Part shown: positions 7,412 through 40,846 of the stretch, piece by piece | How positions within the stretch are numbered: position 1 is the first letter of the stretch | Layout: each line of letters starts with the position of its first letter | Origin: a candidate division WOR-3 bacterium | Lineage (GTDB): Bacteria; Hydrothermota; Tepidihabitantia; Tepidihabitantales; Tepidihabitantaceae | Direction of reading: 5' to 3' | DNA: 64,000 nt | NCBI GenBank assembly: GCA_024653355.1 | Contig: JANLFQ010000003.1 | Location: 74,944 to 138,943 of the forward strand | The notes under the pieces: model-generated | What the model was told of the DNA's origin: nothing | The model's input: only the letters and a program-made list of their open reading frames with translations | Database searches by the model: none | Translations under genes and position numbers: made by a program

Positions 7412-7412
7412 G

Positions 7413-8558: not shown

Positions 8559-8579
8559 CGGCGGAAATAAGGAGGTACA

Positions 8580-10184: not shown

Positions 10185-10187
10185 AAT

Positions 10188-11338: not shown

Positions 11339-11354
11339 ACAGGAAAGGAGCAAC

Positions 11355-11837
11355 TTGAGCGAGAAATTTTTAGCAATTTTAGCTATCGCGGTTGTTGCCC
11401 TGGGTGGTTATACCCTGTTTTTCCGAACAAATGGTGCTGGTCCGAAGATTGCTGACGGGACGGCATACACCGAAATTTCCCATATGGCGCCGGCCGAAGT
11501 GTCGCGTTCGATGCAATCTAAAGAAAAGGTCCAAGCACCGTCATCTGCCGGGGTAACATCAGCCCAGGGCGCAGCGCTGGAAACTGCTACCAGTTATGAA
11601 GAAAATGTGGTATGGGGAAGTGACCCATTCGTGCGCGACTGGGTTTTGAGTACTGAGATTGCCAATCTGAACCTTCAGGCGATTACGGTTACCCCTCACG
11701 GTGCGAGCGCCTTAATCAATGACCAGATTGTCCAAGTCGGAGATGAAATCAATCGCAAAAAAGTGGTTGATATCAAAGAGGACCAGGTAACCCTGGAGCA
11801 GGGTGGTCGAACATTTACTTTGACACTGGGGGAGTAA
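11355..11837 (+). CDS. PilP-like protein
   Basis: TTG start after AAAGGAG; N-terminal TM helix; C-terminal ...INDQIVQVGDEINRKKVVDIKEDQVTLEQGG resembles the PilP domain. Confidence 0.5.
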   Translation: MSEKFLAILAIAVVALGGYTLFFRTNGAGPKIADGTAYTEISHMAPAEVSRSMQSKEKVQAPSSAGVTSAQGAALETATSYEENVVWGSDPFVRDWVLSTEIANLNLQAITVTPHGASALINDQIVQVGDEINRKKVVDIKEDQVTLEQGGRTFTLTLGE

Positions 11838-11840
11838 CTT

Positions 11841-13442: not shown

Positions 13443-13487
13443 GTTAATGAATTAGGAAAAGCAGGCGGCATTGCCTTTTGCTGATGA

Positions 13488-14624
13488 ATGAATATCGACG
13501 AACTCCTGCGCTATGCAGCAAAATACGGTGCCTCTGACCTCCATATCACTGCGGGCAATCCGCCGATAATCAGGGTTAACGGCAGACTAAAGAAAATTCC
13601 CGGACCAGCACTGACGGCAGAAGATGCCCAGTTGCTGGTCTACTCTATTCTCTCGGATGAACAGCGGGCGGCGGTTGAAAGAAAACGGGAGCTGGACCTT
13701 TCTTACACCTGGGGCGAGGCTTCGCACCATTTACCGCCGGAGGCGGTAACCCTTGATTATATCAGCCCGGAGCGGGTCCGGGCAAGGGTTAATGTATTTC
13801 TTGATTTAGGTGGGGTGGGGGCGGCATTTCGCATCATACCAGCAAAAATCCGGACGCTTGATGAGTTGCCGGCGCCCGCTTCGGTGGCGGAGCTGACGCG
13901 CAGCCATTCCGGACTGGTTCTGGTTACCGGTCCGACCGGTTGTGGGAAATCGACGACGCTGGCAAGTATGATTGACCTGATCGACCAGGAACGGGCGGTA
14001 CGGATAATCACGATTGAGGACCCGATTGAGTACATCTTTCAGCCCCGGAACTGCTTGATAAGTCAGCGGGAGATTGGCACCCATTCCCGTTCATTTGCCG
14101 CCGCGCTGCGGGCGTGTCTGCGGGAAGACCCGGATGTGATTCTGGTGGGCGAGATGCGGGATTTGGAAACTATCAGTCTCGCTTTGACCGCAGCCGAGAC
14201 CGGCCATCTGGTCCTTTCTACACTCCACACGAACAATGTTGCCCAGACTGTTGACCGGGTGATTGATGTCTTTCCTGCTGACCAGCAGGAGTATGTACGG
14301 CAGATTTTTGCCAATGTGATTCGCGGTATCATATCGCAGACCTTGTTGCCCCGGAAAGATGGTAGAGGAAGGGTGGCGGCGATGGAGGTTCTGGTTGCGA
14401 CACCGGCGGTCAAAAACCTTATTCGGGAGGCAAAGACCCACCAGATACCGTCACTGGTCCAGACCGGCTCTCAGTACGGGATGCAGACAATGGACCAGTG
14501 TTTAGAGTCGCTGATGGCAGAGGGGCTTATCGCTCCGGAGGTTGCCTATGCTGTCGCCAGCGACAAGAAACTTTTCACTCCTCCAGCCAGTCCGGTTTCA
14601 CCGCCCGGTCCGAAAGGGCAGTGA
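13488..14624 (+). CDS. pilT: Type IV pilus retraction ATPase PilT
   Basis: GASDLHIT, Walker A GPTGCGKST, Asp box, PilT signature AVKNLIREAKTHQIPSLVQTG. Confidence 0.9.
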   Translation: MNIDELLRYAAKYGASDLHITAGNPPIIRVNGRLKKIPGPALTAEDAQLLVYSILSDEQRAAVERKRELDLSYTWGEASHHLPPEAVTLDYISPERVRARVNVFLDLGGVGAAFRIIPAKIRTLDELPAPASVAELTRSHSGLVLVTGPTGCGKSTTLASMIDLIDQERAVRIITIEDPIEYIFQPRNCLISQREIGTHSRSFAAALRACLREDPDVILVGEMRDLETISLALTAAETGHLVLSTLHTNNVAQTVDRVIDVFPADQQEYVRQIFANVIRGIISQTLLPRKDGRGRVAAMEVLVATPAVKNLIREAKTHQIPSLVQTGSQYGMQTMDQCLESLMAEGLIAPEVAYAVASDKKLFTPPASPVSPPGPKGQ

Positions 14625-15485: not shown

Positions 15486-17420
15486 TTACTGGCGAATGAC
15501 AAACTCGACGCGGCGGTTGAGTTGTCTGCCTTCTTCGGTGTCGTTAGAGGCGATGGGACGCGATTCGCCGTAGCCCTTGGCGCTGAGCCGTTTCGGGTCA
15601 ATGCCACCGTACTGCACCAGGAAGTTCATCACTGAGTAGGCGCGTTTCTCGGAGAGAATCTGGTTTGCCTTTTCCGAGCCGATGTTGTCGGTATGTCCCT
15701 GAATCTCCACGATGATGTCCGGGTTGTCTTTCATAATCTGGGCGGCTTCCATCAGTGCCGGATAGGATTCGGTGCGCAGTGTCGCCTTGCCAAACTCAAA
15801 GTAGACACCTTTGAGCGTGAGCACCATACCCTTGGCAACCAGTTCAAAGGTCCGGGTGGTGGTTTCGCCTTTGGTGATTGCAAAACTGCTGGTTTGAGGC
15901 AGATAGCCCGGGACTTCAACCTTCACCTCGTAGGAGCCAACAGGCAGTTCCATCTCGAATTCGCCGGTTGTCGCATCGGTTGAAAGCGAGGGCCGTTCGC
16001 CCTGCAGGAATGAGATGGTGGCGGCTAACGGTGCGCCGCTCTGTTTATCAACAACCTTGCCTTTGAACACGCCCTTCATCTCAAGTGAGGAGAGGGCGAA
16101 GTTCAGTTTGGTCACGCCACCGTCTTCAACTTCGACCGCCCGTTCCTCCGGGAAGTAACCTTCTTTTTCCACCCGGACCACAACCAGCCCTGCCGGCACA
16201 TTGTCGGAGCGGAAAAATCCGGTTGTCGGGTTGGAGGTTACCGGTGGAATGTTGGTGGCGATAAATGAGATTGTTGCCTCAAGCGGTTTGCCGTTGTAGG
16301 CGTCAGAAACTCTGCCGGCAACCGTGCCGTAGGGCACGAGCGGCTTCAGTTTGAAGGTGTAGGTGGCATAGCCCTTATCCGGTATGACAAGGGGTACCGC
16401 TTCCGGGATATAGCCTTCGCGGGAGGCTTCAACCACGACCACACCAGCGGGCAGTTTTTCGAGGAAGAAGGTGCCGTTTTCCGGGTCGGTTTTAAGTGCT
16501 GGCAGCCGGCGCTTGATAAATCGGATTTTTGCCTCAAGTGGCATACCAGAGCGGGCGTCTTCAACTTTGCCCACCAGCCTGCCCCAAGGCTTTTCGGGCG
16601 GCTTCGGGAAAGGCGAGACGAAACTCAGCCCGAAGATACCTTCGTAGTCGGGAACCGCATCGGTTAAACCAAGTTCAACGCCGCCGTTCAGGTGCAACAC
16701 GCCCATCTTAATTCGGACACCGGGTGTGATTCGGGCGCGCGGTGTATAATCCTTACCCCAGAGTGCGGAAAATCCGGCGCTGGCGTCCGCTTCTGATGTT
16801 GCTTCTACAAACAGGTCAATGGCGTTGCTTGCCATTTCGATGCCGATGCCGGCGAAGTTCTCTTTTTCGCCCGACAGGGTCTGGCCATAGTTAAACATCA
16901 AGGTGGGTAAGGTTTTGTGCAGTTCCCAGAAGCGTAATGAGAGCAGTCCCCGCCAGGAGTTTTTATCTGATGCCAATCGGTCGAGAAAGCCGTCGGTCTC
17001 CTTGAAGTTGTAGGTACTCTTGGGCATTACCCAGGTGCCGAGCGCTGCGACCTTAACCACCGGTAGAAATGGAATTGACAGTTTTGCGCCGAGAATCTGT
17101 CCCTGCCAGTCGTAGAACAGGGCGTTGGGATTGGTGCGAAAGTCAATAACGCCAACAAGCGAGCCGAACAGTTCGCAGAACGGGTAGGGCGCATAGTTCA
17201 TCTCCATTCCGTAGAGCGGTCCCCGGTACAGGGTGACATTTTCGCCCAGATTGGCACGGAGAAACATCCAGCGGGTCGCGAACACCAGGGCACCGTCTTC
17301 TTCAACCCGGGCGTCCTGGATGCGGAAAAGACCCCGACCCCCACCGAGCGCAGGGTCGGCATACAAGCCGGTAAAGAAAACGGTTGCGAACAGGGTTAGG
17401 GAGAGGACAACTTTTTTCAT
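15486..17420 (-). CDS. OmpA-family outer-membrane protein with three CarboxypepD_reg-like repeats
   Basis: Signal peptide; three repeats of G.V.D..SG.PL.A.I.F; C-terminal OmpA domain (...NRRVEFVI). Confidence 0.85.
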   Translation of the reverse strand: MKKVVLSLTLFATVFFTGLYADPALGGGRGLFRIQDARVEEDGALVFATRWMFLRANLGENVTLYRGPLYGMEMNYAPYPFCELFGSLVGVIDFRTNPNALFYDWQGQILGAKLSIPFLPVVKVAALGTWVMPKSTYNFKETDGFLDRLASDKNSWRGLLSLRFWELHKTLPTLMFNYGQTLSGEKENFAGIGIEMASNAIDLFVEATSEADASAGFSALWGKDYTPRARITPGVRIKMGVLHLNGGVELGLTDAVPDYEGIFGLSFVSPFPKPPEKPWGRLVGKVEDARSGMPLEAKIRFIKRRLPALKTDPENGTFFLEKLPAGVVVVEASREGYIPEAVPLVIPDKGYATYTFKLKPLVPYGTVAGRVSDAYNGKPLEATISFIATNIPPVTSNPTTGFFRSDNVPAGLVVVRVEKEGYFPEERAVEVEDGGVTKLNFALSSLEMKGVFKGKVVDKQSGAPLAATISFLQGERPSLSTDATTGEFEMELPVGSYEVKVEVPGYLPQTSSFAITKGETTTRTFELVAKGMVLTLKGVYFEFGKATLRTESYPALMEAAQIMKDNPDIIVEIQGHTDNIGSEKANQILSEKRAYSVMNFLVQYGGIDPKRLSAKGYGESRPIASNDTEEGRQLNRRVEFVIRQ

Positions 17421-22902: not shown

Positions 22903-23460
22903 ATGAGGGGGGTATTGTCCAGTTTGGGCTGGATTGCTTTTTTAGCACTGGCGGTTCTGGTTTTACTTTTCTACAATGTGAGTTATCTGCCCCAGCAAGG
23001 GCGGGTCGCACGGTTGCAACAGGAAATCAGTATGTGGACGCAACAGGTAACAGAACTCACCGACAGTCTCCAGCGCCTGACCAGCGTTTCCGATACGATT
23101 TTCAATCGAACCTTCCGCTTTGATGAACTGTTTGTCAGTGCGGAGAGTTTGGTTCTGTCTCCCCAGGGTAAGTTGCTGTTGCGTGATGTCGCACCGCAGT
23201 TGAAGGCGCTGGATGTTAATTTTGTGATTATCGGGCACACCGATGGTGCAAAGCCACCTGTTGGTTCCCCTTATCGTACGGGCTGGGAATATTCCGCCGC
23301 TGCTGCCGCGGCGGTCGCCAACGAACTAATAACCCTTGGGGTTGGCGCTGAGCGACTTCTGGTCTGTGGTGCGGGCGATACCAAACCGCTGGTGAAAAAG
23401 GGTTCGGCAGATGCGAGGTTGTTGAATCGTCGGGTGGAGATTGCGGTCCGAAGCCGATGA
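22903..23460 (+). CDS. OmpA/MotB-like domain membrane protein
   Basis: N-terminal TM helix plus coiled coil; C-terminal OmpA-like domain (...LLNRRVEIAVRS). Confidence 0.7.
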   Translation: MRGVLSSLGWIAFLALAVLVLLFYNVSYLPQQGRVARLQQEISMWTQQVTELTDSLQRLTSVSDTIFNRTFRFDELFVSAESLVLSPQGKLLLRDVAPQLKALDVNFVIIGHTDGAKPPVGSPYRTGWEYSAAAAAAVANELITLGVGAERLLVCGAGDTKPLVKKGSADARLLNRRVEIAVRSR

Positions 23461-28697: not shown

Positions 28698-28741
28698 AAA
28701 ATATCATCGGGTATTAAGCGCTGATGTCAAGAATACCGCGG

Positions 28742-28770
28742 TTGACAAATAGATGGGATTGGTCATTATA
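28742..28770 (+). promoter_or_regulatory. sigma70-type promoter (TTGACA-17-ATTATA) abutting the serpin start
   Basis: -35 28742-28747, -10 28765-28770, ATG at 28778. Confidence 0.45.
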
Positions 28771-28777
28771 TTCAGGT

Positions 28778-29974
28778 ATGAACACCATCATTTTGATTGT
28801 CAGTCTTTTCTTATCCGCTTCGCGAGGAGCGGAAACCGGGGTAATTGATGCAGAGCTGGTTTCAGCAAAGAACGAGTTTGGGTTCAAGGTTCTTTCAGCA
28901 CTTGTCAGTACAGCGCCGCAGGAAAATGTGTTTATCTCGCCTTACAGTATTGCCACTGCTTTGACAATGACCTATAATGGTGCTGCCGGTTCCACCCGTA
29001 CCGCAATGGGGGCAACGCTTGGTGTTGGTGGTTTAGAGGTTCAGCGGCTTAACACCGGAGAAAAATTTCTTGCTGCAAGATTGCAGAGTGCTAAACCGGG
29101 TCTGGAACTGTTGATTGCTAACTCGCTCTGGGCGAGGAAAGGGGTGGCGTTTAATTCCGCTTTTTTGAACACTAACAAGGAGTTTTATCAGGCGGTGGTG
29201 GCGACGATTGATTTCAATAGCCCGGATGCAGCGAAAAAGATTAACCAATGGGTAAAGGATAAGACAAAAGGGAAAATCGACAAGGTCGTTGACCGGATTA
29301 AACCTGAGGCGGTGCTCTTTTTAATCAATGCGGTTTTCTTTAAGGGCAGATGGCAGGAGAAGTTCGACCCCAGGAACAGTCAGGATGATAAATTTTATCC
29401 GGATGATGCCCAACCGGTGCTTGTGAAGATGATGATGCGTTCGGGTAAATTCCGCTATCTGGAAACCGCGGAGTTTCAGGCGGTGGAGTTGCCTTACGAT
29501 GAGGGCAAGGTTAGTATGCTGATATTTTTACCGGCCCGCGGTAAACTGGACAGTTTGATTTCCCATCTGTCATCTTCCACCTGGCAGGAGTGGTGGAGCA
29601 GATTTCGGTCACGGGAGGGAACGGTTTGGTTGCCACGCTTCAAAATGGAGTATGAGAAGAGTTTAAAAGAGGTTTTAACAGAATTGGGGATGGGCGTGGC
29701 GTTTGACCTGAATCAGGCCGATTTTTCTTTAATGGGTAAAGGCGGTCCGGGTTTTGCCATCGGTGATGTGAAGCATAAGAGTTTTGTTGAAGTCAATGAA
29801 GAGGGCACGGAGGCGGCTGCGGTGACATCGGTGGAAATGGTTCTTGCGTCGGTACCTCCGCAACCTCGTTTTGAGATGGTTATCAATCGACCTTTCCTCT
29901 TCGCAATCCAGGATAATGAAACCGGCACAATTTTATTTCTCGGTGCAATGCGAAACCCCGCAGCGCATAATTAA
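28778..29974 (+). CDS. Serpin-family serine protease inhibitor, secreted
   Basis: Signal peptide MNTIILIVSLFLSA; serpin C-terminal motifs (...FVEVNEEGTEAAAVT... reactive-centre loop, ...NRPFLFAIQDNETGTILFLGAMRNP). Confidence 0.85.
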   Translation: MNTIILIVSLFLSASRGAETGVIDAELVSAKNEFGFKVLSALVSTAPQENVFISPYSIATALTMTYNGAAGSTRTAMGATLGVGGLEVQRLNTGEKFLAARLQSAKPGLELLIANSLWARKGVAFNSAFLNTNKEFYQAVVATIDFNSPDAAKKINQWVKDKTKGKIDKVVDRIKPEAVLFLINAVFFKGRWQEKFDPRNSQDDKFYPDDAQPVLVKMMMRSGKFRYLETAEFQAVELPYDEGKVSMLIFLPARGKLDSLISHLSSSTWQEWWSRFRSREGTVWLPRFKMEYEKSLKEVLTELGMGVAFDLNQADFSLMGKGGPGFAIGDVKHKSFVEVNEEGTEAAAVTSVEMVLASVPPQPRFEMVINRPFLFAIQDNETGTILFLGAMRNPAAHN

Positions 29975-30756
29975 AGGTACATCTCAGGACGGCGGTCTAA
30001 AATAATATCGTTGCGGGCAGTGACATTTTTGTTGAGAGCCTGACCGGGGTTTATTTCGACTATTTTTAAAGCTTCCTTATCGGCACTGGCACGGTATAAC
30101 AGGGTGCCGTCGGGTGCGACAATCTGACTTTGACCCGTAAATTGCATCTTTTTGGCGCCGAGTTGTTCTACACCGATTCGGTTGGCAAGGAGCCAGAACA
30201 TCCGATTTTCTTGAGCGCGAGTTACGGTCATTGTCTGGGCGTAGTTGAGGATAAGATTTGCCGGATGACACACAATCTGGGCACCGCGCAGGGCAAGGGT
30301 GCGGGCGCTTTCCGGAAAGAAGTAGTCAAAACAGACCAGCATACCGATTCGCACACTACCAAGATTGAACACCGGGAAAGGAAGGTCACCAGGGTCAAAG
30401 AGGTCTTTCTCGTCCGCAAAGAGGTGAACCTTACGATATATGTGGACATTGCCGCTCTCGGTAACAAGCAGTGCTGAGTTGTAGATTTTGCTACCCGCGG
30501 CTTCAGCAATTCCCAGGACGATGTTGATGCTGTGTTGCAAACAGAAGTTGATGATTTTGTTACAGGAGGGGCCATTCGGTACTGGTTCGGCAAACCGGGC
30601 GAGCTGCTCGCGGCTGGAAAAGAGATAGCCAGTTAGACAAAGTTCGGGCAGCACAATGAGGTCTGCCTTGATGCGGCTGAGACGGTGGAAAATTCGTGCC
30701 AAATTCGTTTCGACCAACAAATGCTCAGGGGAAAATTGGTAGATTCCAACGCGCAT
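29971..30756 (-). CDS. Carbon-nitrogen hydrolase (nitrilase superfamily)
   Basis: E-K-C triad context including ...GMLVCFDYFFPE... Confidence 0.8.
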   Translation of the reverse strand: MRVGIYQFSPEHLLVETNLARIFHRLSRIKADLIVLPELCLTGYLFSSREQLARFAEPVPNGPSCNKIINFCLQHSINIVLGIAEAAGSKIYNSALLVTESGNVHIYRKVHLFADEKDLFDPGDLPFPVFNLGSVRIGMLVCFDYFFPESARTLALRGAQIVCHPANLILNYAQTMTVTRAQENRMFWLLANRIGVEQLGAKKMQFTGQSQIVAPDGTLLYRASADKEALKIVEINPGQALNKNVTARNDIILDRRPEMYL

Positions 30757-30917
30757 CAGATTATTTAGTGCTACAATAAGAGAGTACTTTTTTCCTTTGC
30801 CCTGTCAAGAAACCCTTGCCCTGGTAGTAGTTTTATAAAATAATCCAATCAATTTATAACTGTTAATATTACAGAAAGATAGGCAACTGTCGCAGTGAAT
30901 AAAGGGTTGTCGCACAT

Positions 30918-30946
30918 TTGACTGATATTACTATTTTTGCTATAAT
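30918..30946 (+). promoter_or_regulatory. sigma70-type promoter (TTGACT-17-TATAAT) abutting the kinase/EBP start
   Basis: -35 30918-30923, -10 30941-30946, ATG at 30954; direct repeat TGTCGCA at 30888 and 30908 just upstream. Confidence 0.5.
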
Positions 30947-30953
30947 TCACACA

Positions 30954-33900
30954 ATGACGCAGCGGGGAAGTGGTGAAAATTTACAATTTTCTCAACCCGT
31001 TGGTGACCGGTATTACATTGAAGAAATCCTTGGTGGAGGAGAAACTACTGAGGTTTATCGGGTTCGCGACATTGTTACGGGCCGGTACCTCGCGCTGAAA
31101 ACGGTACGTAGCGGGTGTCCTGAAGAAGAAAATGTAAGATTAAGCCGGGAATTTTTTTACCTTTCCCAAATTTCTCATCCCGGTGTGGTGGCGGTTCACG
31201 ACTATGGCAGAATTACGGATGGTCGAGCCTATTTCACAATGGAGTATATCCCCGGAGTGCCGATAACCCGCTATTTTGGTGGTGGTTACGACCCGCGCTT
31301 AAACGATGTCATTGTGCAGATTCTTTTGGCACTGGATGCAATCCACGCCCAGGGAATGATACACTGCGATTTAAAACCCGAGCATATTCTGGTTGTTGAG
31401 GACGAGGGGAAATTCAGCGTCAAACTGCTCGATTTTGGGTTTGCCGAGGATTTTTGTATCGTAGGTCCGAAAAATGGAAAAGGCACACCTGGTTATGTAG
31501 CACCCGAGATACTGAAAGGGGTTGATTCTGATGTGCGGGCTGACCTTTACGCATTAGGGATGGTTATTTACGAGACATTAACGGGTATTGGTCCAGGAAG
31601 AGGGGCGGACCTTCTTGATTGGCTGAGGAAACAGCAACAAGGTGATTTTGCACCCCCTCGTTCCTTCAATTCTGATATCCCGGATAAACTGGACCGACTG
31701 GTGATGAAACTGATTAGCCCGCGTCCGGAGCAGCGACCGGCATCGGCACAAGCGGCCATTGAGGAGTTGATTGGCGAGAACTTGTCTAATGTTGCATTGC
31801 CGGCGTTGCGGCGGGACATAATGGCTTCCGGGTTTGTTGCCCGGGAAGAGATTCTTCAAAAGTTAAAAGAGATTTTGCGATTTGTTGCTGATGGTCAGTC
31901 GAGTGTGGTTTGTATTTCCGGTGACCGGGGTGTGGGTAAGAGCCGGCTGCTTGCTGAGTTCAAATTTTATGCAGAAATGGAGGGAGCATCGGTATTCTCT
32001 TTCGAGCCCGTGTCGCTCAACGCCCGTTCTCAGTCGCTTATCGAGGCGCTGGTTGGGCTCTTGCGTAGCTACGGCCATACCGGAGCACCATTAATTTCGG
32101 TGGATGCGGGCAGGGAGAGTAACTACCGTTTGTTTGAGTGGGTAACTCAACGATTGAAACTGGTGGCAAACTCCCATCGGATAAAACACAGTTTGGTAAT
32201 TATTGTGGATGACTTTGAACTTTTTGACCCGACAAGTCTGGATTTACTCCGTTACCTGGCGTTGGGGGTTGATACGGAACGGGTGATGCTCGTGGTGACC
32301 GGGCTGAAAGAAAAACGCTTTCTGGATACGATTGATGGGATTAAGCACCGTGCTAATTTTCAACACATCGTTATTCCACCTTTTAAACGGGATGAGGTTA
32401 AAGAACTGGTGCTTTCCATATTAGGAAAGGTGCAGGATGTTGAACCTTTGATAGACTGGCTGTTTGAATTTACCGGCGGTAACCCGCTCTGGGTGGTGGA
32501 AACAATTTATGAGTTGATTGAAGATAAAATTTTGGTTAGAGAAATGTCGGGATGGAATCTGGCTAAAGACCGGCTGGCGGCTTTCCGCCCGCCACCATCA
32601 ATTAGTGATACAATCCGCCAGCGCGTTGAATCGTTAACCCCGGAGGAAAAATCGGTCCTGGAGATTGCGGCAGCGGCTGCAGGGCCTTTTACTCTTAAGT
32701 TGGTGCGGGCGGCGCTTAACCTTGAAGAGAAGGTTTTATTTAAGGCGATTAACCGACTCAAGGGGCTTGGTTTTCTCAGGGCGTTCCGTGCCGCATGCCC
32801 GGAAGACAAATTCAGTTTTTCTCCGGGCTGGGTTCTCTCAAGTAAGATTCTCGAAAGCGTAATAGTTGAACGGCTGTCGGTTGAGGAACGGCGTGAGAAC
32901 CATCGTAAAGTGGCGCTGGCTCTGGAGTTGCTTTATCCAGAACGAGTACCGGAGATGGTTTTTGACCTGGCACACCACTGGACACTTGCTGGTGTGCGGG
33001 ACCGGGCTTATGACTACTCACTTCGCGCCGGGGCAAGAGCTAGGGAGTGGTTGCTCTTCGAGCAGGCGCTGGCGTTTTATGAAAACGCACTCAGCCTTTC
33101 AGCCGGTTTGATTACGGCGCGGGAGCGTGTTGGTTTGTTGGAGAAGGTTGGTGAACTGCGGGAACTGACCGGCAGATTTGCTGAGGCGATTGACATATAT
33201 CGTCAGGGTATGGGGCTGGCGGTTGCTGAATCGGAACTTGCCCGGGATAAAAAGTTTCTTGCCCGATTTCTGCGTCGGCTCGGGCTGGTGTATCAAAAAC
33301 AGGGGCTGGTAGCGGATGCGATAAACCTTTTGAATCAATCGCTTCATTTATTATCGGAAGACAGTTTGGAGCGGGCACGGCTTCTTGCCGACCTTGGTTG
33401 GTCCTATTGCGGGTCAGGAGATTTTAGCCATGCGGAGGAGGTTTTGACCACTGCTCTGCAACTGGCAGAAAAATTGAAGTCAACTGTGACCGTTGAAGCC
33501 AATCGGCTGGTGGGTTTGATACTTTACTACTTTGCGGTTCTTGCCTGGGCAAAATACGATTTTGTGCTGGCATTGCAGCTGGCGGAGCGAGCGCTGGATG
33601 TTTTTGAGCGTTTAGAAGAAGAGATAATGAAAGCAACGGTGAGTCAGTTTATAGCAACGCTTTACACTCGCCGGGGAGAAGCGGAAAAGGCAAAGGAGTT
33701 TTATCAGCGGGCTGTTGCGTGCCAGCGCCGGGCGGGTGCGGTTTATTATCTGCTTACATCGTTACAGGGGTTAGGTTTACTGTCTCTTGATGAGGGCGAG
33801 TGGAACCAGGCAGAGCAGTATTTCAAAGAGGCGCTGAAGATCGCGGAGCAAGTAGGCAACCTATCCGACCAAGTTAATCTCTATACGATGCTGGGTGGAG

Positions 33901-36203
33901 TATATGATGTCAAAGGTTTATGGTCTTTAGCACACGATTTTTATGGACGAGCCCGGACAATTGTTGAACAAGATGAAGGTAAGATTGGCTTTCGCACCCG
34001 ATTTGCTCTTCTGTGCAATATCGCTTTGCTACGGGCTAAACAGGGTGAACTTGGAGCGGCAGAAGAGTATATCGCCCAGGCAGCAAAGGTAATTGAAGGG
34101 GTTGACGATTCGTATTTACAATTTAATCTGTTGGTAAACCAGGCTGAGGTTGCTTTACGGGCAGAGCGGTTGGAACGGGCAAAGGGATTCCTTGTCAGAG
34201 CATTCTGGATTGTGGCCAGGGAGCCGGACTGGCGCAAACTGGCAAAACTGTACATCCTTTCAAGCCGGCTCCGTCTTGCTGCCGGTGACAGTCATCGGGC
34301 GCACTATGCGGCAAGCAGGGCGCTAACCTTGCTTCGGGACTATCCATCTTCACTGGAGTTCGCCATCGCCCTACGGTGTTCGGGATTGGCAAAGTGCAAA
34401 CTTGACCAGATGGAAAAGGGGCAGGCGGAGTTGAGACGCAGTATTGAAATCCTTCGGCAGTTAGGTGTTAAGTATGAACTGGCGCTTTCGCTGAGTGCGC
34501 CGGCTAAGAGTTTGACTGGGGAAAGCCGCGTCTCGGGTTTGAAGGTGCCGATTACCAGTCGGCAGGTTTCCCGGGAGGAGTTCAACGAGATAAAGTTGAA
34601 TTTGAAGGAGGCGATTGGGTATTTTCAGGAGTTGGGAGCGAAGCCAGAGGCACAGGAGTGCGAACAACTTCTGGATACGCTGGATCAGGCGTTTGGCGTT
34701 TTGCAGTTAAAGGCGCAGGAGCGGAGTGAGTACCTGAAGGTCTTTTACCAGTTGAGTGAACTTTTAAATCTGGGATTGAGTCGTGAAGACTTCCTTGACC
34801 GGGTACTTGATTTAGTGCTTTCAGTTACCAAGGCAGAGAGGGGATTAATATTTTTTATCCATGGTAACCGGCTAATCCCGGTTGCAGCCCGGGATATTGA
34901 CCATCGGACCCTTGAGGATGCAACCGCGGTTTCGCAAACGGTTTTACGCAAGGTCAAGCGGCGGGGTGAACCTTTAATCAGTGCCGATGCGCTTGCTGAC
35001 CCGAGACTCAACAGTTTTAACAGCGTTCTATTAAACAAAATTCGCTCGCTTCTGTGTGTGCCGCTTATCGTAGAAGGTAAGGTGATTGGTACAATCTACC
35101 TTGACTCCCGAATTACATCCCATCTATTTTTAGAAGAGGACCGAAGTTTGCTGCTGGCGGTGGCGAATCTCCTGGCTGCAACGATTGACCGCTCAACAAC
35201 CTTCCGGGAACTGCAGGAACAGATTTCAGATATTCGTGAAGGCATTTTAGTTGACGCGGCAACCGGTTTATTTCTGGGTAGGTCTAAAGCAATGCGACAG
35301 GTTTATCAGGTTATTGACCGGATTGCACCGACAGATTGCACGGTGTTACTGACCGGTGAGACTGGCACCGGCAAGGGTGTTCTGGCACGGCTGATTCATC
35401 AACGGAGCGGGCGTAAAGACAACAAGTTTGTTGCGGTGAACTGCGGAACTTTGCCCGAGACTTTGTTTGAATCTGAACTGTTCGGTCATGCCCGGGGTAG
35501 TTTTACCGGTGCGGTCAAGGATAAGGTCGGTATTTTTGAAACCGCACATGGGGGAACGATTTTCCTCGACGAGATTACCAACACCACCCTGACAATCCAG
35601 GCGAAACTTCTGCAGGTGCTGGAGGAAAAGGTGATTCGGCGGGTAGGCGAAACCGAACCCCGAATGGTTGATGTCCGTCTGATTTGTGCTACAAATAAAA
35701 ACCTTGCCGAAGAGGTAAAAGCGGGTAGATTTCGAGAAGACCTCTACTATCGGATGAATGTTGTGGCGATAGAGGTGCCGCCGCTCAGGGAAAGGGTCGG
35801 CGACATACCTCACCTTGCCGACTATTTTCTGCACAGTTATGCGACACAGTTGAATAAACCTATACTGGGGTTTGAAGATGATGTGATTGCCGCCTTTACT
35901 CAGTACCACTGGCCCGGTAATGTCCGGGAACTTCAAAATACGATTGAAAGGGCGGTGATAATGACCCAGAACCGCCGAATTTCGCTTGCCGATGTGGGCA
36001 AACCATTCACCGATATGCAGATTACCCCAGAGTTTCCCGGAAATAAGAAACGGACAATTGACAAGGAGCAGGTGGTCAACGCATTAAAAGAAACAAACGG
36101 GAACATCACTCGAGCCGCGGAACGCCTTTCAACCCACAGGCGCCAACTCCAAAGGCTTATAAAACGATACAAAATAGACCTTGACAGCCTGCGGCAGGCG
36201 TAG
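30954..36203 (+). CDS. Multidomain regulator: Ser/Thr protein kinase, STAND/AAA NTPase, TPR repeats, GAF, sigma54-interaction AAA+ domain and Fis-type HTH
   Basis: Kinase motifs (GGGETTEVYRV, ALK, HCDLKPEH, DFGFA, GTPGYVAPE); P-loop GDRGVGKSRLL with Walker B IIVDDFELFD; long TPR region; GAF; EBP motifs GETGTGKG, ESELFGHARGSFTGA, C-terminal HTH; one uninterrupted ORF. Confidence 0.85.
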   Translation: MTQRGSGENLQFSQPVGDRYYIEEILGGGETTEVYRVRDIVTGRYLALKTVRSGCPEEENVRLSREFFYLSQISHPGVVAVHDYGRITDGRAYFTMEYIPGVPITRYFGGGYDPRLNDVIVQILLALDAIHAQGMIHCDLKPEHILVVEDEGKFSVKLLDFGFAEDFCIVGPKNGKGTPGYVAPEILKGVDSDVRADLYALGMVIYETLTGIGPGRGADLLDWLRKQQQGDFAPPRSFNSDIPDKLDRLVMKLISPRPEQRPASAQAAIEELIGENLSNVALPALRRDIMASGFVAREEILQKLKEILRFVADGQSSVVCISGDRGVGKSRLLAEFKFYAEMEGASVFSFEPVSLNARSQSLIEALVGLLRSYGHTGAPLISVDAGRESNYRLFEWVTQRLKLVANSHRIKHSLVIIVDDFELFDPTSLDLLRYLALGVDTERVMLVVTGLKEKRFLDTIDGIKHRANFQHIVIPPFKRDEVKELVLSILGKVQDVEPLIDWLFEFTGGNPLWVVETIYELIEDKILVREMSGWNLAKDRLAAFRPPPSISDTIRQRVESLTPEEKSVLEIAAAAAGPFTLKLVRAALNLEEKVLFKAINRLKGLGFLRAFRAACPEDKFSFSPGWVLSSKILESVIVERLSVEERRENHRKVALALELLYPERVPEMVFDLAHHWTLAGVRDRAYDYSLRAGARAREWLLFEQALAFYENALSLSAGLITARERVGLLEKVGELRELTGRFAEAIDIYRQGMGLAVAESELARDKKFLARFLRRLGLVYQKQGLVADAINLLNQSLHLLSEDSLERARLLADLGWSYCGSGDFSHAEEVLTTALQLAEKLKSTVTVEANRLVGLILYYFAVLAWAKYDFVLALQLAERALDVFERLEEEIMKATVSQFIATLYTRRGEAEKAKEFYQRAVACQRRAGAVYYLLTSLQGLGLLSLDEGEWNQAEQYFKEALKIAEQVGNLSDQVNLYTMLGGVYDVKGLWSLAHDFYGRARTIVEQDEGKIGFRTRFALLCNIALLRAKQGELGAAEEYIAQAAKVIEGVDDSYLQFNLLVNQAEVALRAERLERAKGFLVRAFWIVAREPDWRKLAKLYILSSRLRLAAGDSHRAHYAASRALTLLRDYPSSLEFAIALRCSGLAKCKLDQMEKGQAELRRSIEILRQLGVKYELALSLSAPAKSLTGESRVSGLKVPITSRQVSREEFNEIKLNLKEAIGYFQELGAKPEAQECEQLLDTLDQAFGVLQLKAQERSEYLKVFYQLSELLNLGLSREDFLDRVLDLVLSVTKAERGLIFFIHGNRLIPVAARDIDHRTLEDATAVSQTVLRKVKRRGEPLISADALADPRLNSFNSVLLNKIRSLLCVPLIVEGKVIGTIYLDSRITSHLFLEEDRSLLLAVANLLAATIDRSTTFRELQEQISDIREGILVDAATGLFLGRSKAMRQVYQVIDRIAPTDCTVLLTGETGTGKGVLARLIHQRSGRKDNKFVAVNCGTLPETLFESELFGHARGSFTGAVKDKVGIFETAHGGTIFLDEITNTTLTIQAKLLQVLEEKVIRRVGETEPRMVDVRLICATNKNLAEEVKAGRFREDLYYRMNVVAIEVPPLRERVGDIPHLADYFLHSYATQLNKPILGFEDDVIAAFTQYHWPGNVRELQNTIERAVIMTQNRRISLADVGKPFTDMQITPEFPGNKKRTIDKEQVVNALKETNGNITRAAERLSTHRRQLQRLIKRYKIDLDSLRQA

Positions 36204-36358
36204 CCGTCTTACCCCAATTTCTAAGTTATTATTTTTTGAATAGTTGTAGGGTTGAATTCAAAAGGTGCGACAATTTTGTTTTGTCATTGTTGTGAATAAA
36301 AAGCTGGGTGGATATTATAAGTTACAATTCTGCGATAGTTATAATAAGCATAAAAATG

Positions 36359-36374
36359 TGGCATTGTTATTGCA
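36359..36374 (+). promoter_or_regulatory. sigma54 (RpoN) -24/-12 promoter
   Basis: TGGCAT-N5-TTGCA, with GG and GC 12 nt apart as in the consensus TGGCAC-N5-TTGCA; located ~150 bp downstream of the EBP gene. Confidence 0.65.
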
Positions 36375-36432
36375 ATTATAAAAGTTAGTTTGGATTAATT
36401 AGGTCAGGTTCTTTATATAAAAAGGAGGAAGC

Positions 36433-36489
36433 AATGGACGGCATCGTTCCGATTCTCCCACCCCCGCGGCCTGCGCCACCGGTGAAGTA
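36433..36489 (+). CDS. Small ORF, 18 aa, proline-rich (MDGIVPILPPPRPAPPVK)
   Basis: AAGGAGG 5 nt upstream of the ATG; polyproline stretch; below the ORF-track length cutoff. Confidence 0.35.
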
Positions 36490-36509
36490 GGTGCACAGGC
36501 GTTAAATTG

Positions 36510-36545
36510 TCCTCAGCCCGCAATGCGGGCTGAGGATTTTATTTA
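36510..36545 (+). terminator. Intrinsic terminator
   Basis: 11-bp stem CCTCAGCCCGC / GCGGGCTGAGG, loop AAT, followed by ATTTTATTTAT. Confidence 0.75.
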
Positions 36546-37469
36546 TCGGGATTCGTAAAATGTTTTTCCCCAGAAGGCGACCTTTTTTATCAAACCTTCT
36601 TTGACCATTTTTTCGAGTACCGGCTTTATCTCACGGGCAGGAATTCCGAGGGAACGGCAGAGGTCTTCTTCGGTTACAGGTCTATTCTGCACTACGGCAA
36701 GGACCGCTTTCTGGCTGTTGCCGTGGAATTTTCTCTGTCTCTTTTTAATCGGTGAGAAGGCGATTTCGGCTTCAGGTCCAAAGAGCAGTTTCACCTGGTT
36801 CAGGTCGTCCATTGTTAGGGGCAGGGCGTCTTTTTCTGCTGGCGGCCGCACCACAGTGTTCAGGTGGACCCGGTCCGGCTTTATTTCATAGGCAAGCCGG
36901 CGAAGTTTCATCAGATGTTCAGGAGAGTCGTTAACTCCTTTTACCAGCATAATTTCCAGCCACAACTTTCCTTTATAGTAACGACGAAATGTCTTGAGCC
37001 CCTGAACAATTTTTTCAACCTTTAAGTCTGGATGACACCGGTTAACGCGATGAAATGTTTTCTGGTCTGCGGCATCAAGGCTGGGAACGACCAAGTCCGC
37101 CGGGTACAGGTCGTGGCGGACCTTCGGGTCCAACAAAAGGGTTGAATTGGTGATGACCGCTACCGGGATTTTGAACTCGGCTTTGAGAAGGCGGATGAGT
37201 TTTCCAATGTCTTTGTTTAGGGTGGGTTCGCCTTCGCCGGAAAAGGTGAGATAGTCAATCCGATGTTGAGCAACTGCGGTGCGCACTTCCTTGAGAATTT
37301 CATCTATCGGGTAGAATGAGCGGCGTGCTAAGGTGAGTTTAGTTGTTCTGCCACACTGGCAGTAGATGCAGTTCAGGGTGCAGGTTTTCTTCGGGATAAT
37401 GTTTAATCCCAAAGAAAGCCCGAGACGTCGGGAAGGTACCGGGCCATAAACATAATTTTTGATTATCAT
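36543..37469 (-). CDS. Radical SAM domain protein with C-terminal winged-helix-like region
   Basis: N-terminus YGPVPSRRLGLSLGLNI...CTLNCIYCQCG (CxxxCxxC cluster); C-terminal ~80 aa helical. Confidence 0.8.
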   Translation of the reverse strand: MIIKNYVYGPVPSRRLGLSLGLNIIPKKTCTLNCIYCQCGRTTKLTLARRSFYPIDEILKEVRTAVAQHRIDYLTFSGEGEPTLNKDIGKLIRLLKAEFKIPVAVITNSTLLLDPKVRHDLYPADLVVPSLDAADQKTFHRVNRCHPDLKVEKIVQGLKTFRRYYKGKLWLEIMLVKGVNDSPEHLMKLRRLAYEIKPDRVHLNTVVRPPAEKDALPLTMDDLNQVKLLFGPEAEIAFSPIKKRQRKFHGNSQKAVLAVVQNRPVTEEDLCRSLGIPAREIKPVLEKMVKEGLIKKVAFWGKTFYESR

Positions 37470-40400
37470 CTTTTGACCAGTTTACAGGTATTTTTTGTCC
37501 TGGGCAAGTGGGGTGCGGCACCGGTCGTAAGATGAATGAAGTAGATGCCAGGAGGCAAGGTATTGCCCTGTGTGTCGGTCCCGTCCCAAGTACAGGCATA
37601 CCAGCCGGCGGGTTGCTTTTCTTGCACGATTGTTTTAATCTTCCTGCCACTGACATCAAAAAGAGTTAAAGAGACATCGGAATTTTGAGCAATGGAGTAG
37701 AAAATGGTGGTGCGGTTCCGGCAGGGGTTTGGGAAAACGCGAAGCAGATGTGCCGAATCCGGAGCAGGATGGGTGAGTGATTCAACGGTTGTGACCTGGA
37801 TGTCATCAAGGTAAAAACCCTCGCCGGTTTTGCCGTCACCGTCGGAGACAAAGAGAAATTTAATCTGAACCGATTCGCCGGCAGGATATGAGGAAAGGTC
37901 GAAACTTTCTTTAAGCCAGGTTGAGGTCAAACCCATTTTTTCTTCAGATAGGGCACCACCAGTTCCGATAAAGTAAAGGGTGTCTTCCCGGTTAGGGGTA
38001 ATTAATATGACATACAAACCATCCACACCGTAAATCGGCAATGAGAACCATCGGTAGAATGTCAAAGCGGCAAATGGGGGCAAAGCAAAGCGGGGTGAGA
38101 GTAACCAGTACGAGGCGCGGTCAGGATAAGTGCCGGTTTCATTACCTGCATAGCAGGCAAAAGATGGGCTGTGGAATCTCCGGGTTGAGAGTGACCAGGA
38201 CCCGTTCTCACCACCGGTTGTCCAGGTGCCGAAACCGGAATCAAAATCGGTATAGATGCCAAGGGTATTGGAGGCGATTGTCAATGTGTCACTGGTAAGG
38301 TGCCGATTTGCGGTGATGTTTACACCAAGTTGAAACCGACCGGTGCCGACAAACCGGGCCGGGGTTAAAGACCAGACAGTTTCTCCGGGCGCGATATCGG
38401 GAAAGATTAAACCCGGGGTTATTATTTGGGGCAACAGGGTTTCGGGTCGAGGCAGAAAAATGGTTCCAGATGGCTGGGTTGCAGATGCCAAACCCGAGTT
38501 GGTAAGTTTAATAAACAGGTTAACGGTGTCCGGATAGGAGATGGTTGTTAAGTAGCTGACAAGTCGCAGTACAGGTGTACCGATTTGCAGGGTGAGCGGC
38601 AGGGAAAGGCGGAAACCGATGGGTTCGGTAAATGTCAGGATGCAGGGAACAGTTTGACCGTTGCGGCTAAGGGTGCTACAGCGGAAGCTGAATGAGGTTA
38701 AGACCGTTTCGCTTTGCGGTTGCAGGGCAGGGATAGAAACGGCTTTGTTTGTAAAGATAACAAAGGGTGAGGTTGTTGAAATTGAACAGCGGACCGGATT
38801 GGTTTGCAGAGTGCCGGTGTTGGCGATGGTCAGATGAAGGCGATAGGTTTGACCCGGTGAAAGGAATTGGGTGGTTTCGGCTTCAGGAGTGATAAGTCGG
38901 TAACCGGTAACCGAAAGGGTAGGTTGGCTAAATACCGGAATGGAATCTTCAAGCGGCAGGTGATTGGATGCGGTGATGATAATGCGGACAGTTGAGGTGC
39001 TGGAGAGTGTAATTGGCAGACAAAGGGTGCCTGCGGTTGAAGTTCTGCCCCGGGCAAGGAGCGTAGAGTTCTGGATAACTGTGACCCGGGCACCGGTAAC
39101 CGGTCCCGCAGGGTCTTGAACTGCAAGCCAGACAGAGTTTTCACCCACGGTCAGATGGGAAGGTTTGCTTACAGTCAGCGGAATCGGGGTGGCGGTGAAG
39201 ATGAGCATTGCCGGGTCACCTAAGAGGTTAAGGCAGTACTGATGCCAGCGATAAACATTGGGTTCAAAACTGTAAGGAGCAAAGAAAAGTTTGGTGCGGG
39301 CAAGAATTTCACCGATACGAGGCTCGGCGTGGCCGAACAGCTCCTTAAAGAATCGGAAATCAAACCGGTCCGAGTAACCGAATCCCGGGTTACCAGGCGA
39401 ACCCCAACCATACGAGGAGTTACCGATGAACGCTACCGCACCGCCCTGCGGATTACGGATAAAATGTTCTGCGATGGCGTCAAGGTCAAAGGCGTTGGTC
39501 CAGCACCCGATTGAGTAGCCGATGCCGGCACGGCTGAAGTTGATGAGCCCATCAACATCCTGGTTGCGCAGGGTGGCACCGCGGGCAAGGCTCAGGGCGT
39601 TGAACCAGCCGTGACCGCAGTGGTTGAAGAAGTTAAAACCACTGTTGAGCAGGGCACAGGCGGTATCAACGGTAACCGTCATCCGGGACTCGTACAGTTT
39701 GTGAATCGGTCCGTATCCAACGGGAAGTGCCTGAGCAGCGATTCGTTCTTTGGCAATGGCTTCGTCGGTATAAGGCTCATCCCAGAGGATTGCAGCGGAG
39801 AAAAGCGTGCGGGTTTGATAGTCGTATGTCCTGCCCAACTCATAGGCGATTAGTTTGTCCACATAGGCGCGTGCCTGCTCCGGGGTGTTTACCGGCACCC
39901 TGCCAACATAGATATCAGGATAAAGGTCAACGCTGTCTTCGGTTTCACCGAACACGCCGTCGCCATCCGCGTCCCAGTTGCCATCAAGGCAGGAGTAGTA
40001 AAAGTCACAGGGCAACGAGTCTTCGCGGGGATGAAGCCCGGCTGAGCAAGCCAGCGCAAACGCCTTGCGTACCGGGACAATGTCAACATCTCCGCCCAGC
40101 AAGAGGTATTTTAAGCCGGAGTCCTGGGCGCACTGTTGCAAATAGTTCCTTAATTTTTCTGCCGGGTCCTGGCCCTGATAAACTGAGGTTATCCATTCAA
40201 TTGCTCGACAGCCGGTGTTGAAGCCTGTTTGCTGACGCCAGCGGGCAAGAGGCGCAAAAACGGTGTCCATTGTTTGGGAGGTGACGATGAGGTACTCCAG
40301 GGGTCCGGTTTCTGCCCATTCCGCAGTCGATTGGAACTTGTGTTCAAAGGCGAGATTCACCTTTTTGATGAGCCGGACCCGGTTTTGTTCGGGTAACAGT

Positions 40401-40846
40401 TGCAAAGGGAAGATAAGGAGCGAGGCAACTGGTTTACCCCGCATATACCCCTGATTCGTAATAACGCAGACCGATTCCGGATAGGGGTTTGAAAAATCGA
40501 TAAGGGGCGGTTTCCCACTTAATTTTTGTGCCGGTAGAGAAAGGATGTTCGGGGGTGGAACATAAGCAAGATTAAAACTACCGGGCAAAGTTTCGTATTC
40601 AACACTAACCGTTTTAATACCGGCGAGACGGGTGTTAGGAGGCAGCAAAATGTTAATTGGCTTTACGGGCAGGGCAGGGTTATTGGGTGGAGTCGCAATC
40701 TCAGCATCGGGCAGGTTGAACAAAGTTCCGTTCTCGGTGATGGACAATTGCAAATCGGCATGGGAAAAAGTGAAGGTGTGGACAACGGTTTGTGCGGTTG
40801 TGTCAATGAAGAGGCAAAAAAGAAGAAGGAGAAGGTGAGCCGCCAT
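37466..40846 (-). CDS. Large secreted peptidase C25 (gingipain)-like protein with T9SS C-terminal sorting domain
   Basis: Signal peptide; candidate catalytic His/Cys context (FFNHCGHGWF, GYSIGCWTNAF); C-terminal ...LTLFDVSGRKIKTIV...PPGIYFIHL typical of a T9SS CTD; family assignment tentative. Confidence 0.6.
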   Translation of the reverse strand: MAAHLLLLLFCLFIDTTAQTVVHTFTFSHADLQLSITENGTLFNLPDAEIATPPNNPALPVKPINILLPPNTRLAGIKTVSVEYETLPGSFNLAYVPPPNILSLPAQKLSGKPPLIDFSNPYPESVCVITNQGYMRGKPVASLLIFPLQLLPEQNRVRLIKKVNLAFEHKFQSTAEWAETGPLEYLIVTSQTMDTVFAPLARWRQQTGFNTGCRAIEWITSVYQGQDPAEKLRNYLQQCAQDSGLKYLLLGGDVDIVPVRKAFALACSAGLHPREDSLPCDFYYSCLDGNWDADGDGVFGETEDSVDLYPDIYVGRVPVNTPEQARAYVDKLIAYELGRTYDYQTRTLFSAAILWDEPYTDEAIAKERIAAQALPVGYGPIHKLYESRMTVTVDTACALLNSGFNFFNHCGHGWFNALSLARGATLRNQDVDGLINFSRAGIGYSIGCWTNAFDLDAIAEHFIRNPQGGAVAFIGNSSYGWGSPGNPGFGYSDRFDFRFFKELFGHAEPRIGEILARTKLFFAPYSFEPNVYRWHQYCLNLLGDPAMLIFTATPIPLTVSKPSHLTVGENSVWLAVQDPAGPVTGARVTVIQNSTLLARGRTSTAGTLCLPITLSSTSTVRIIITASNHLPLEDSIPVFSQPTLSVTGYRLITPEAETTQFLSPGQTYRLHLTIANTGTLQTNPVRCSISTTSPFVIFTNKAVSIPALQPQSETVLTSFSFRCSTLSRNGQTVPCILTFTEPIGFRLSLPLTLQIGTPVLRLVSYLTTISYPDTVNLFIKLTNSGLASATQPSGTIFLPRPETLLPQIITPGLIFPDIAPGETVWSLTPARFVGTGRFQLGVNITANRHLTSDTLTIASNTLGIYTDFDSGFGTWTTGGENGSWSLSTRRFHSPSFACYAGNETGTYPDRASYWLLSPRFALPPFAALTFYRWFSLPIYGVDGLYVILITPNREDTLYFIGTGGALSEEKMGLTSTWLKESFDLSSYPAGESVQIKFLFVSDGDGKTGEGFYLDDIQVTTVESLTHPAPDSAHLLRVFPNPCRNRTTIFYSIAQNSDVSLTLFDVSGRKIKTIVQEKQPAGWYACTWDGTDTQGNTLPPGIYFIHLTTGAAPHLPRTKNTCKLVKR

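Follow-up and report, generated by a model that had tools for sequence, protein, structure and literature searches.

A conserved proline-rich micropeptide gene, probably driven by sigma-54, linked to a giant TPR-containing activator in candidate division WOR-3 bacteria

Small RNAs (sRNAs) transcribed from sigma-54 promoters next to the genes of their activators have precedents in CrcZ beside cbrB and Qrr beside luxO (PMC6296734, PMC8043402). In the RRNPPA systems, which are reported to be confined to Bacillota and the mobile elements of these bacteria (PMC10075063, PMC9765709), Sec-dependent propeptides are encoded adjacent to a cytoplasmic tetratricopeptide repeat (TPR) receptor (PMC10075063); tandemly duplicated propeptides (PMC11343458) and leaderless peptides (PMC10518010) have been described as well. 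The locus treated here consists of a gene for a giant sigma-54 activator followed by a gene for an 18-residue proline-rich peptide. It works like both of these systems, pairing a sigma-54 activator with a short transcript as in CrcZ and Qrr and a TPR regulator with a propeptide as in RRNPPA, and is a member of neither. It lies in a stretch of 64,000 nt (the window; positions 74,944 to 138,943 of contig JANLFQ010000003.1, forward strand, assembly GCA_024653355.1) from a candidate division WOR-3 bacterium.

The peptide gene is very probably an activator-linked, sigma-54-driven, protein-coding micro-gene. It has no gene call in the annotation of the source assembly, a WOR-3 metagenome-assembled genome. 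A preliminary description of the window had proposed a sigma-54 promoter (TGGCAT-N5-TTGCA, with correct GG-to-GC spacing) followed by AAGGAGG, an 18-codon proline-rich open reading frame (ORF) and a strong intrinsic terminator, together forming a self-contained unit of ~160 nt beside the activator with no + strand gene behind it. Each of these elements is present on the + strand (Table 1), and the next gene, encoding a radical SAM protein, is convergent (36543-37469, - strand). The tail of the terminator is T-rich and the centre base of the hairpin, 36523, is unpaired (1 nt, scored as a 3-nt loop in one computation).

The promoter sequence TGGCATTGTTATTGCA matches 10 of the 11 consensus positions of TGGCAC-N5-TTGCW. 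It is the sole exact match to TGGCAY-N5-TTGCW in the 64 kb, where 0.15 would be expected by chance and where 13 of 100 shuffles contained at least one match, and it is the sole intergenic match in the window when at most one mismatch to TGGCAC-N5-TTGCA is allowed. Taken alone, in a single window, the match is weakly significant, suggestive and not decisive. The promoter and its unit stand far above chance because the whole arrangement is conserved in orthologous loci, and this conservation excludes a chance occurrence of promoter and ORF.

A genome scan with the activator protein gave two relatives, with activators 95% and 81% identical to that of the window, and further contigs carried activators with identities of 67, 63, 56, 50, 46, 44, 42, 40, 37, 32 and 28%. 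Four further usable loci came from a metagenome scan for the pattern ATGGAYGG-N13-22-PPPxPAPP codons. Among the matches listed from that scan, 5 of 120 stretches were true and the rest were mostly chance matches inside long GC-rich ORFs; this listing is uninformative on abundance. Altogether 15 of the ~180 members of the activator family were inspected, mostly from WOR-3 (loci are denoted below by our own numbers, such as L004). At all 15 loci, whose activators are 32-95% identical, the activator is followed on its own strand, after 190-470 nt, by a proline-rich peptide gene. The 28%-identical homologue, from a GC-rich genome apparently outside the WOR-3 clade, has neither a peptide gene nor the boxes described below, and an unrelated operon stands there.

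Promoter, Shine-Dalgarno sequence, ORF and terminator are all retained in the relatives with 95% and 81% identical activators, and the changes in their ORFs are synonymous or in frame. AAGGAGG or AAAGGAGG precedes every leaderless ORF, and a terminator hairpin follows the ORF in every leaderless locus, with a compensatory C:G to T:A change in the stem in L005. Co-conservation of promoter, ORF and terminator next to the activator, which the preliminary description had suggested looking for in related genomes, is what these loci display. Other downstream neighbours vary, among them radical SAM/C25 peptidase genes and genes for a PKD protein, UvrB, an amidohydrolase and a VWA protein. The radical SAM neighbour is confined to a subclade of window-like loci (the window, L004, L005, L012, L013 and L095) and is absent from L014, L104 and L135-L141. 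Because the other neighbours change between loci, it is the activator, rather than the radical SAM gene, that the peptide gene can be said to accompany.

For 14 loci, the region from -130 to -20 relative to the peptide start was scanned for promoters, with shuffles of each locus as the control. A GG-N10-GC element with at least 7 of the 11 consensus positions was found in 12 of them, 30-71 nt upstream of the peptide start; the matches are on the sense strand and the antisense strand is essentially empty. In 10 of the 12 positive loci, the observed score was reached by at most 5% of the shuffles. The locus thus combines GG/GC spacing, conserved position and orientation, an adjacent activator of the GAFTGA type and upstream boxes, as is expected of a sigma-54 promoter.

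Orthologous ORFs of 16-20 aa were found at 10 further distinct loci. The consensus of ten leaderless loci is M-D-G-x(2-4)-P-[ILV]-[LY]-PPP-x-PAPP-x(1-3). At the nine codons that are invariant in amino acid, the numbers of variable columns at codon positions 1, 2 and 3 are 0, 0 and 8 for these ten loci, and the same 0/0/8 count is obtained for the six loci found purely by synteny. The ORFs differ in length by whole codons, all indels being in frame. Distant leaderless versions have the sequences MMGTPFPIPPMPLPITPPPY (L135) and MFGVFVPPSPLPVPPK (L137), and PPP is absent from many members of the family (IPPKPGPP, PHPPKPVPP, VPPSPLPVPP). The 5' untranslated region (UTR) is between 23 and 56 nt long, at ~51% identity, and the 3' spacer shows no conservation. 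Nucleotide identity is 0.51-0.57 in the UTRs versus 0.70 in the ORF. Since this comparison discriminates mildly in short AT-rich stretches, the codon-position statistics carry the coding argument, and judged by them selection acts on the peptide and not on the RNA.

Conservation at the locus follows the codon frame, and the frame-independent conservation characteristic of a functional RNA was not found. The known sigma-54-dependent sRNAs (CrcZ-CbrB, Qrr-LuxO, GlmY-GlrR) resemble the present arrangement in having an activator, a -24/-12 promoter with upstream boxes and a short terminated transcript; they differ in that the conserved element here is an ORF under amino-acid selection with longer secreted homologues. 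An Rfam scan of 35800-37000, with E values up to 10, gave sub-threshold matches only, the best being NsiR1 at 26 bits against a cutoff of 39 bits and covering the terminator hairpin only. Of the dual-function sRNA/micropeptide suggested in the preliminary description, the micropeptide is borne out by the third-position variation, the in-frame indels and the secreted homologues; its sRNA half, and with it the analogy drawn there with the base-pairing sRNAs Qrr and GlmY/Z, is not sustained, the 5' UTR varying in length, neither UTR being conserved in sequence and Rfam giving no match.

No Pfam or NCBIfam family was found for the window peptide, for the 20-aa L135 peptide or for the 139-aa repeat protein of L136. 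The window peptide, being below the length limit, was doubled to a 36-mer for the scan, and the single match in these databases, a 9-residue Hap4 motif, is spurious. Searches of the literature for sigma-54 with proline-rich small ORFs, for sigma-54 in WOR-3 and for kinase-STAND-TPR activators returned nothing relevant as a prior description.

In five lineages (L136 and L138-L141) the product of the gene in this position begins with a Sec signal peptide, whose cleavage site is of the AxA type. In L136, L138 and L139, whose activators are 42-46% identical, the signal peptide is followed by tandem copies of the unit (Table 1), with short hydrophobic-acidic spacers in between. The units of any one gene have the same or nearly the same amino acids, and their third codon positions vary at 12 of 14 (L136), 8 of 12 (L138) and 9 of 12 (L139) sites; because the amino acids match while the third positions differ, selection appears to act on every tandem copy. 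The final unit of L138, DGIVIPPKPGPPK-stop, is nearly superimposable on M-DGIVPILPPPRPAPPVK-stop of the window. L141 has a signal peptide and one unit, DPTNALPPPTQPLPLPAPPQ. In L140, a signal peptide and EIPSPPQPLPPPW are followed by a 600-aa cargo protein of the type IX secretion system (T9SS), the whole being 648 aa. The start called for this gene (7028-8974), at 7175, is too late; an in-frame ATG at 7028 lies 30 nt after a sigma-54 promoter with 10 of 11 consensus positions, and the N-terminus extended to this ATG adds the signal peptide and the unit. The peptides are uniform within a genome and different between lineages. No homologue of the L136 repeat protein was found at E <= 1e-3 in a database of 5.8 billion proteins. 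The spacers of this protein (8792-9211; PSW-LADGT) resemble W-acidic motifs bound by the TPRs of kinesin light chain, a resemblance that may be coincidental.

The activator promoter and the peptide promoter share a 7-mer, TGTCGCA or its reverse complement. It occurs 16 times in the 64 kb, both strands together, and three copies fall in the ~320 nt of intergenic DNA flanking the activator gene, against ~0.08 expected. The TTGAC(T/A)...TATAAT of the activator promoter is conserved in the orthologues, and in 10 of 12 orthologous loci the pair of boxes lies just upstream of the TTGACT/A -35 hexamer. In 12 of 12, one or more GCGACA/TGTCGC boxes occur between the activator stop and the peptide start codon; in L014 and L104 there are TGTCGC-N7-GCGACA palindromes. 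Most simply, the box would be where the HTH_8 domain of the activator binds, serving autoregulation and also acting as an enhancer of the peptide promoter. We infer that the activator binds at these sites and that the peptide gene is transcribed in a sigma-54-dependent manner. A search across the window for further pairs of box and sigma-54 promoter found none. Two further TGCGACA boxes, at 35293 and 35840 on the + strand, are situated within the activator coding region, towards its 3' end and ~1.1 and 0.5 kb before the sigma-54 promoter, and could be distant enhancers or chance occurrences. Where the preliminary description saw a regulatory module beside the activator, the unit itself stands; the shared box motif and the secreted versions of the peptide formed no part of that reading. 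These two additions, the box and the secreted single- and multi-copy versions, lead us to regard the peptide as a product that acts in its own right, probably as a signal or ligand.

Table 1. Features of the activator-peptide locus in the window, and tandem units encoded at three orthologous loci.
Feature	Position	Strand	Details
Two direct TGTCGCA boxes	30888-30894 and 30908-30914	+	20 nt apart; abut the -35 of the activator promoter; presumed HTH_8 sites
Activator promoter, sigma-70 type	30918-30946	+	TTGACT (30918-30923), 17-nt spacer, TATAAT (30941-30946)
Giant sigma-54 activator (bacterial enhancer-binding protein, bEBP)	30954-36203	+	1749 aa; assigned from Pfam and NCBIfam domains and motifs
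TGCGACA box	36266-36272	+	Reverse complement of TGTCGCA; candidate upstream activating sequence, ~115 nt before the predicted start
Sigma-54 promoter	36359-36374	+	TGGCATTGTTATTGCA; -24 TGGCAT, -12 TTGCA; GG 36360-61, GC 36372-73, 10-nt spacing
Predicted transcription start	near 36385	+	Predicted transcript ~160 nt (roughly 36385-36545)
Shine-Dalgarno sequence	36422-36428	+	AAGGAGG, 5 nt 5' of the ATG
Micro-ORF	ATG 36434 to TAG 36488-36490	+	MDGIVPILPPPRPAPPVK; 18 codons and stop; one unit of the form DG-hydrophobic-polyproline
Intrinsic terminator	36510-36545	+	Perfect 13-bp GC-rich stem (36510-36522/36524-36536), then TTTTATTTAT
Tandem unit, L136			DGIIIPPRPKPGPS(W); 6 copies
Tandem unit, L138			DGIVIPPKPGPP(R/K); 5 copies
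Tandem unit, L139			DGIPHPPKPVPP; 4 copies

The activator is composed, in order, of a Ser/Thr-kinase-like domain, an AAA_16 STAND NTPase, a TPR_12/MalT-like TPR region, a GAF domain, a sigma-54 AAA+ domain and HTH_8. Its match to Sigma54_activat has an E value of 6e-72, and the GSFTGA loop, Walker A (GETGTGK), Walker B and HTH_8 are kept; no transmembrane segment was found in the 1749 residues. The start codon, ATG 30954, is that annotated in GCA_037481955.1, and TTG 30918, given as the start in a mechanical ORF list, is really the -35 hexamer TTGACT of the activator promoter. A protein search returned more than 100 full-length homologues, and WOR-3 is the label of most of those for which a source is named. 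In the kinase-like domain (30954-31800) the catalytic loop reads HCDLKPEH versus HRDLKPxN, with both the Arg and the metal-binding Asn replaced; the VAIK-type Lys and the DFG and APE motifs are kept, and the domain may be an atypical kinase or a pseudokinase. Among solved structures, those closest in sequence to the TPR region are the peptide-binding TPRs of kinesin light chain and LGN. The region also matches Rgg_C (21.5 bits, cutoff 27) and AimR (E = 0.13) weakly, and one activator homologue matches RNPP_C, again weakly, over 70 residues. With the PADLOC models, only domain-level matches were obtained for the activator, in its kinase and AAA+ regions (PD-T4-6 and RtcR).

The N-terminal architecture, kinase-like domain, AAA_16 STAND and MalT-like TPR, is like that of MalT, the AfsR/LAL STAND regulators and the TIGR03903 fusion of kinase and cyclase associated with thiazole/oxazole-modified microcins (TOMM). 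The output differs, being a sigma-54 AAA+ domain with HTH_8 in the present protein, which scores 166 bits against the TIGR03903 cutoff of 706. TIGR03903 proteins also sit beside small peptide genes.

Our best explanation is a two-gene module. The cytoplasmic activator would bind the TGTCGCA/TGCGACA boxes through its C-terminal HTH_8 and, from the box or boxes ~115 nt upstream of the predicted start, would remodel the sigma-54 holoenzyme at the promoter. The resulting transcript would be translated into MDGIVPILPPPRPAPPVK, probably with help from EF-P at PPP and PAPP, and autoregulation would come from the copies of the box beside the sigma-70 promoter of the activator gene. The functional product would be the peptide itself, one unit of the form acidic-Gly-hydrophobic-polyproline, serving as the cognate signal or feedback ligand of the activator. 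It would most plausibly be sensed by the TPR region, giving an autoinduction or feedback loop. We hold this explanation as a whole, signalling or feedback role included, tentatively and somewhat short of even confidence; the role of cognate ligand, argued by analogy, is on its own a possibility of slightly lower standing.

Four observations lead to the ligand reading. The one-to-one linkage to the activator persists through deep divergence; the peptides are uniform per genome and differ between lineages; the TPR_12 array of the sensor region resembles peptide-binding TPRs, with its weak RNPP_C, Rgg_C and AimR matches; and RRNPPA propeptides are likewise Sec-dependent, tandemly duplicated or leaderless. 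The likeness to RRNPP(A) systems (Rap-Phr, PlcR-PapR, NprR-NprX, Rgg-SHP, ComR-ComS, RopB-LCP and AimR-AimP) extends to a cytoplasmic TPR regulator next to a tiny peptide gene, apparently under control of the regulator, with three encoding styles and lineage-specific peptide sequences. The differences lie in the receptors, which are of 250-500 aa with an XRE-type helix-turn-helix or phosphatase domain, whereas the present activator is a ~1750-aa sigma-54 AAA+ protein, and in the host, which here is a diderm WOR-3 bacterium. A propeptide gene is adjacent at all 15 loci, and the activator does not belong to the RRNPPA superfamily of TPR receptors. By analogy, then, the module may perhaps work like RRNPP(A), of which it is not a member.

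PspF-PspA offers a second comparison. The AAA+ domain of PspF is bound by PspA, a coiled-coil protein of 222 aa. Both cases have a dedicated activator with, in essence, a single sigma-54 target next to it, the product of which may feed back, and the sigma-70 promoter with activator boxes of the present activator, which suggests autoregulation, is counted among the likenesses. The present product differs in being a polyproline peptide of 12-18 residues that is exported in several lineages.

Several observations weigh against the explanation given above. At L137 the element reads TGGTAT-N5-ATGTA, with GT instead of GC at -12, and at L141 a sigma-70-like promoter, TTGACA-18-TAGAAT, replaces the sigma-54 element. 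The gene rpoN was not found within the 64-kb window. Four of the ten leaderless loci were found by the pattern scan, which itself imposes conserved codons. The similarity of the TPR region to RRNPP families is weak and typical of generic TPR cross-matches. The window peptide has no export signal, and neither an exporter nor an Opp-type importer was found nearby. In L140, where the unit lies within a 648-aa secreted protein, a structural or effector role outside the cytoplasm would fit no less well. Finally, the organism is diderm, as shown by the presence in the window of a type IV pilus/type II secretion system (T2SS)-like cluster (6608-14624: two N-methyl pseudopilins, a PilM-PilN fusion, a secretin and a T2SSE ATPase) and OmpA-family genes at 15486-17420 and 22903-23460. 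A Sec-exported 13-18-mer would therefore reach the periplasm, and cell-to-cell signalling would not be straightforward.

The most serious competitor of the ligand reading, although we consider it unlikely, is that the GAF, TPR or kinase-like domain of the activator responds to a different cue and that the peptide is an effector acting elsewhere, without feedback. Where a signal peptide is present, such an effector could be an antimicrobial or anti-competitor peptide, a polyproline-II ligand of a periplasmic or surface protein, or a protease decoy. The Sec signal peptides of five lineages and the fusion of the L140 unit to a T9SS cargo protein would suit an exported effector, as would the frequent presence of T9SS-secreted proteins among the neighbours (C25 peptidase, CHU_C and PKD proteins), and within the window no sigma-54 target other than the peptide gene is visible near the boxes. 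Proline-rich antimicrobial peptides of insects, such as apidaecin, typically have multi-copy precursors, which can be counted in its favour as well. Yet the leaderless versions have no route out of the cell although their unit is under strong selection, and the peptides are nearly neutral, not cationic. Moreover, a strict one-to-one linkage to the regulator amid changing neighbours is more typical of receptor-ligand pairs.

We regard as very improbable that the ORF is a translation-sensing leader or arrest peptide, in which translation itself would matter and ribosome stalling would report EF-P, prolyl-tRNA or Sec status. PPP and PAPP runs depend on EF-P, and PAPP is invariant near the C terminus in the clade of the window. 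The RAPP arrest peptides (ApdA, ApdP and SecM-like monitoring substrates) are similarly encoded by small proline-rich ORFs, some with signal peptides; they have xAPP near the C terminus and are sensitive to EF-P. Their arrest motif is defined as C-terminal R-[AG]-P-[PG] with an essential Arg, AAPP having served as the comparison motif (PMC12992588), and it is this Arg at -3 that is missing here: the sequence is P-A-P-P, not R-A-P-P, and the preceding residue varies (R/L/A/I/S). There is also no downstream gene to regulate, the terminator being followed by a convergent gene in the window and likewise in most orthologous loci. PPP is not universal, and tandem arrays of 4-6 identical units would make no sense for a stalling sensor. 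On these grounds we do not retain the translation-sensing leader offered in the preliminary description.

That the peptide is the precursor of a ribosomally synthesized and post-translationally modified peptide (RiPP), altered by the convergent radical SAM enzyme with its winged-helix tail as a possible recognition element, seems to us more improbable still. The radical SAM gene is indeed tail-to-tail with the ORF wherever it occurs, in the window and five other loci, but it is absent from more than half of the loci, all of which keep the peptide gene, and it is in an operon with the C25 peptidase gene, not with the peptide gene. The radical SAM protein lacks a SPASM domain and reaches the cutoff of no RiPP-maturase model, and the peptide has neither a leader region nor the usual Cys, Ser, Thr or Trp targets. 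Least credible of all is a sigma-54-dependent base-pairing or protein-sequestering sRNA of the Qrr/CrcZ/GlmY type with an incidental or secondary ORF, which would share the genomic logic of activator gene, sigma-54 promoter and short terminator-bounded transcript but is opposed by the lack of an Rfam family, by UTRs conserved neither in length nor in sequence, by ORF variation confined to third codon positions and by homologues that are ordinary protein genes of 49-648 aa.

The genes around the module are of several kinds. The 308-aa radical SAM protein has a winged-helix C terminus, and its gene overlaps by 4 nt that of a 1126-aa C25 (gingipain/PorU-like) peptidase, the two spanning 36543-40846 on the - strand. 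The peptidase carries a T9SS sorting tail, and the pairing of the two genes is conserved in L012, L013 and L095. Sub-threshold matches of the radical SAM protein are to MoaA, to NCBIfam viperin_w_prok (2e-10) and to PADLOC pVip (9e-13). A defence system is not implied, the PADLOC matches being at the domain level for the activator and at a viperin-like, sub-family level for the radical SAM protein. Upstream of the activator (28724-30756) lie a serpin gene (416 aa, + strand) and a divergent C-N hydrolase gene (261 aa, - strand); the position of the latter is kept in L012, L013, L137 and L138, a synteny deeper than that of the radical SAM neighbour. In L141, the region directly upstream of the giant activator (222-2440) contains two paralogous 66-aa ORFs (MNRP[RK]PVLTTYELEQVANI...) and a second sigma-54 activator, of the response-regulator type.

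The locus adds a deeply conserved, unannotated family of micropeptides of 16-20 codons, missed by gene callers, in a candidate phylum that has no cultured model, and it gives the widespread and uncharacterised class of giant kinase-STAND-TPR-GAF sigma-54 activators a concrete target, promoter and DNA box. The module is small enough for reconstitution in E. coli from the activator, a promoter-reporter and a synthetic peptide. If the effector reading were true, a new family of secreted polyproline peptides would still be defined. If the peptide were the ligand of its sigma-54 activator, the module would come near to a categorically new kind. It could then be the first peptide-pheromone/receptor system with a sigma-54 enhancer-binding protein at its core, the first RRNPP-like cassette that is not from Gram-positive bacteria and an autoinduction loop of WOR-3, a set of claims that for the present we think doubtful. 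Were the ligand reading correct, peptide-receptor signalling in the style of the Firmicutes would also have evolved on a sigma-54 scaffold in diderm bacteria, and the same three encoding styles, leaderless, Sec-dependent and tandemly duplicated, would have been reached there too.

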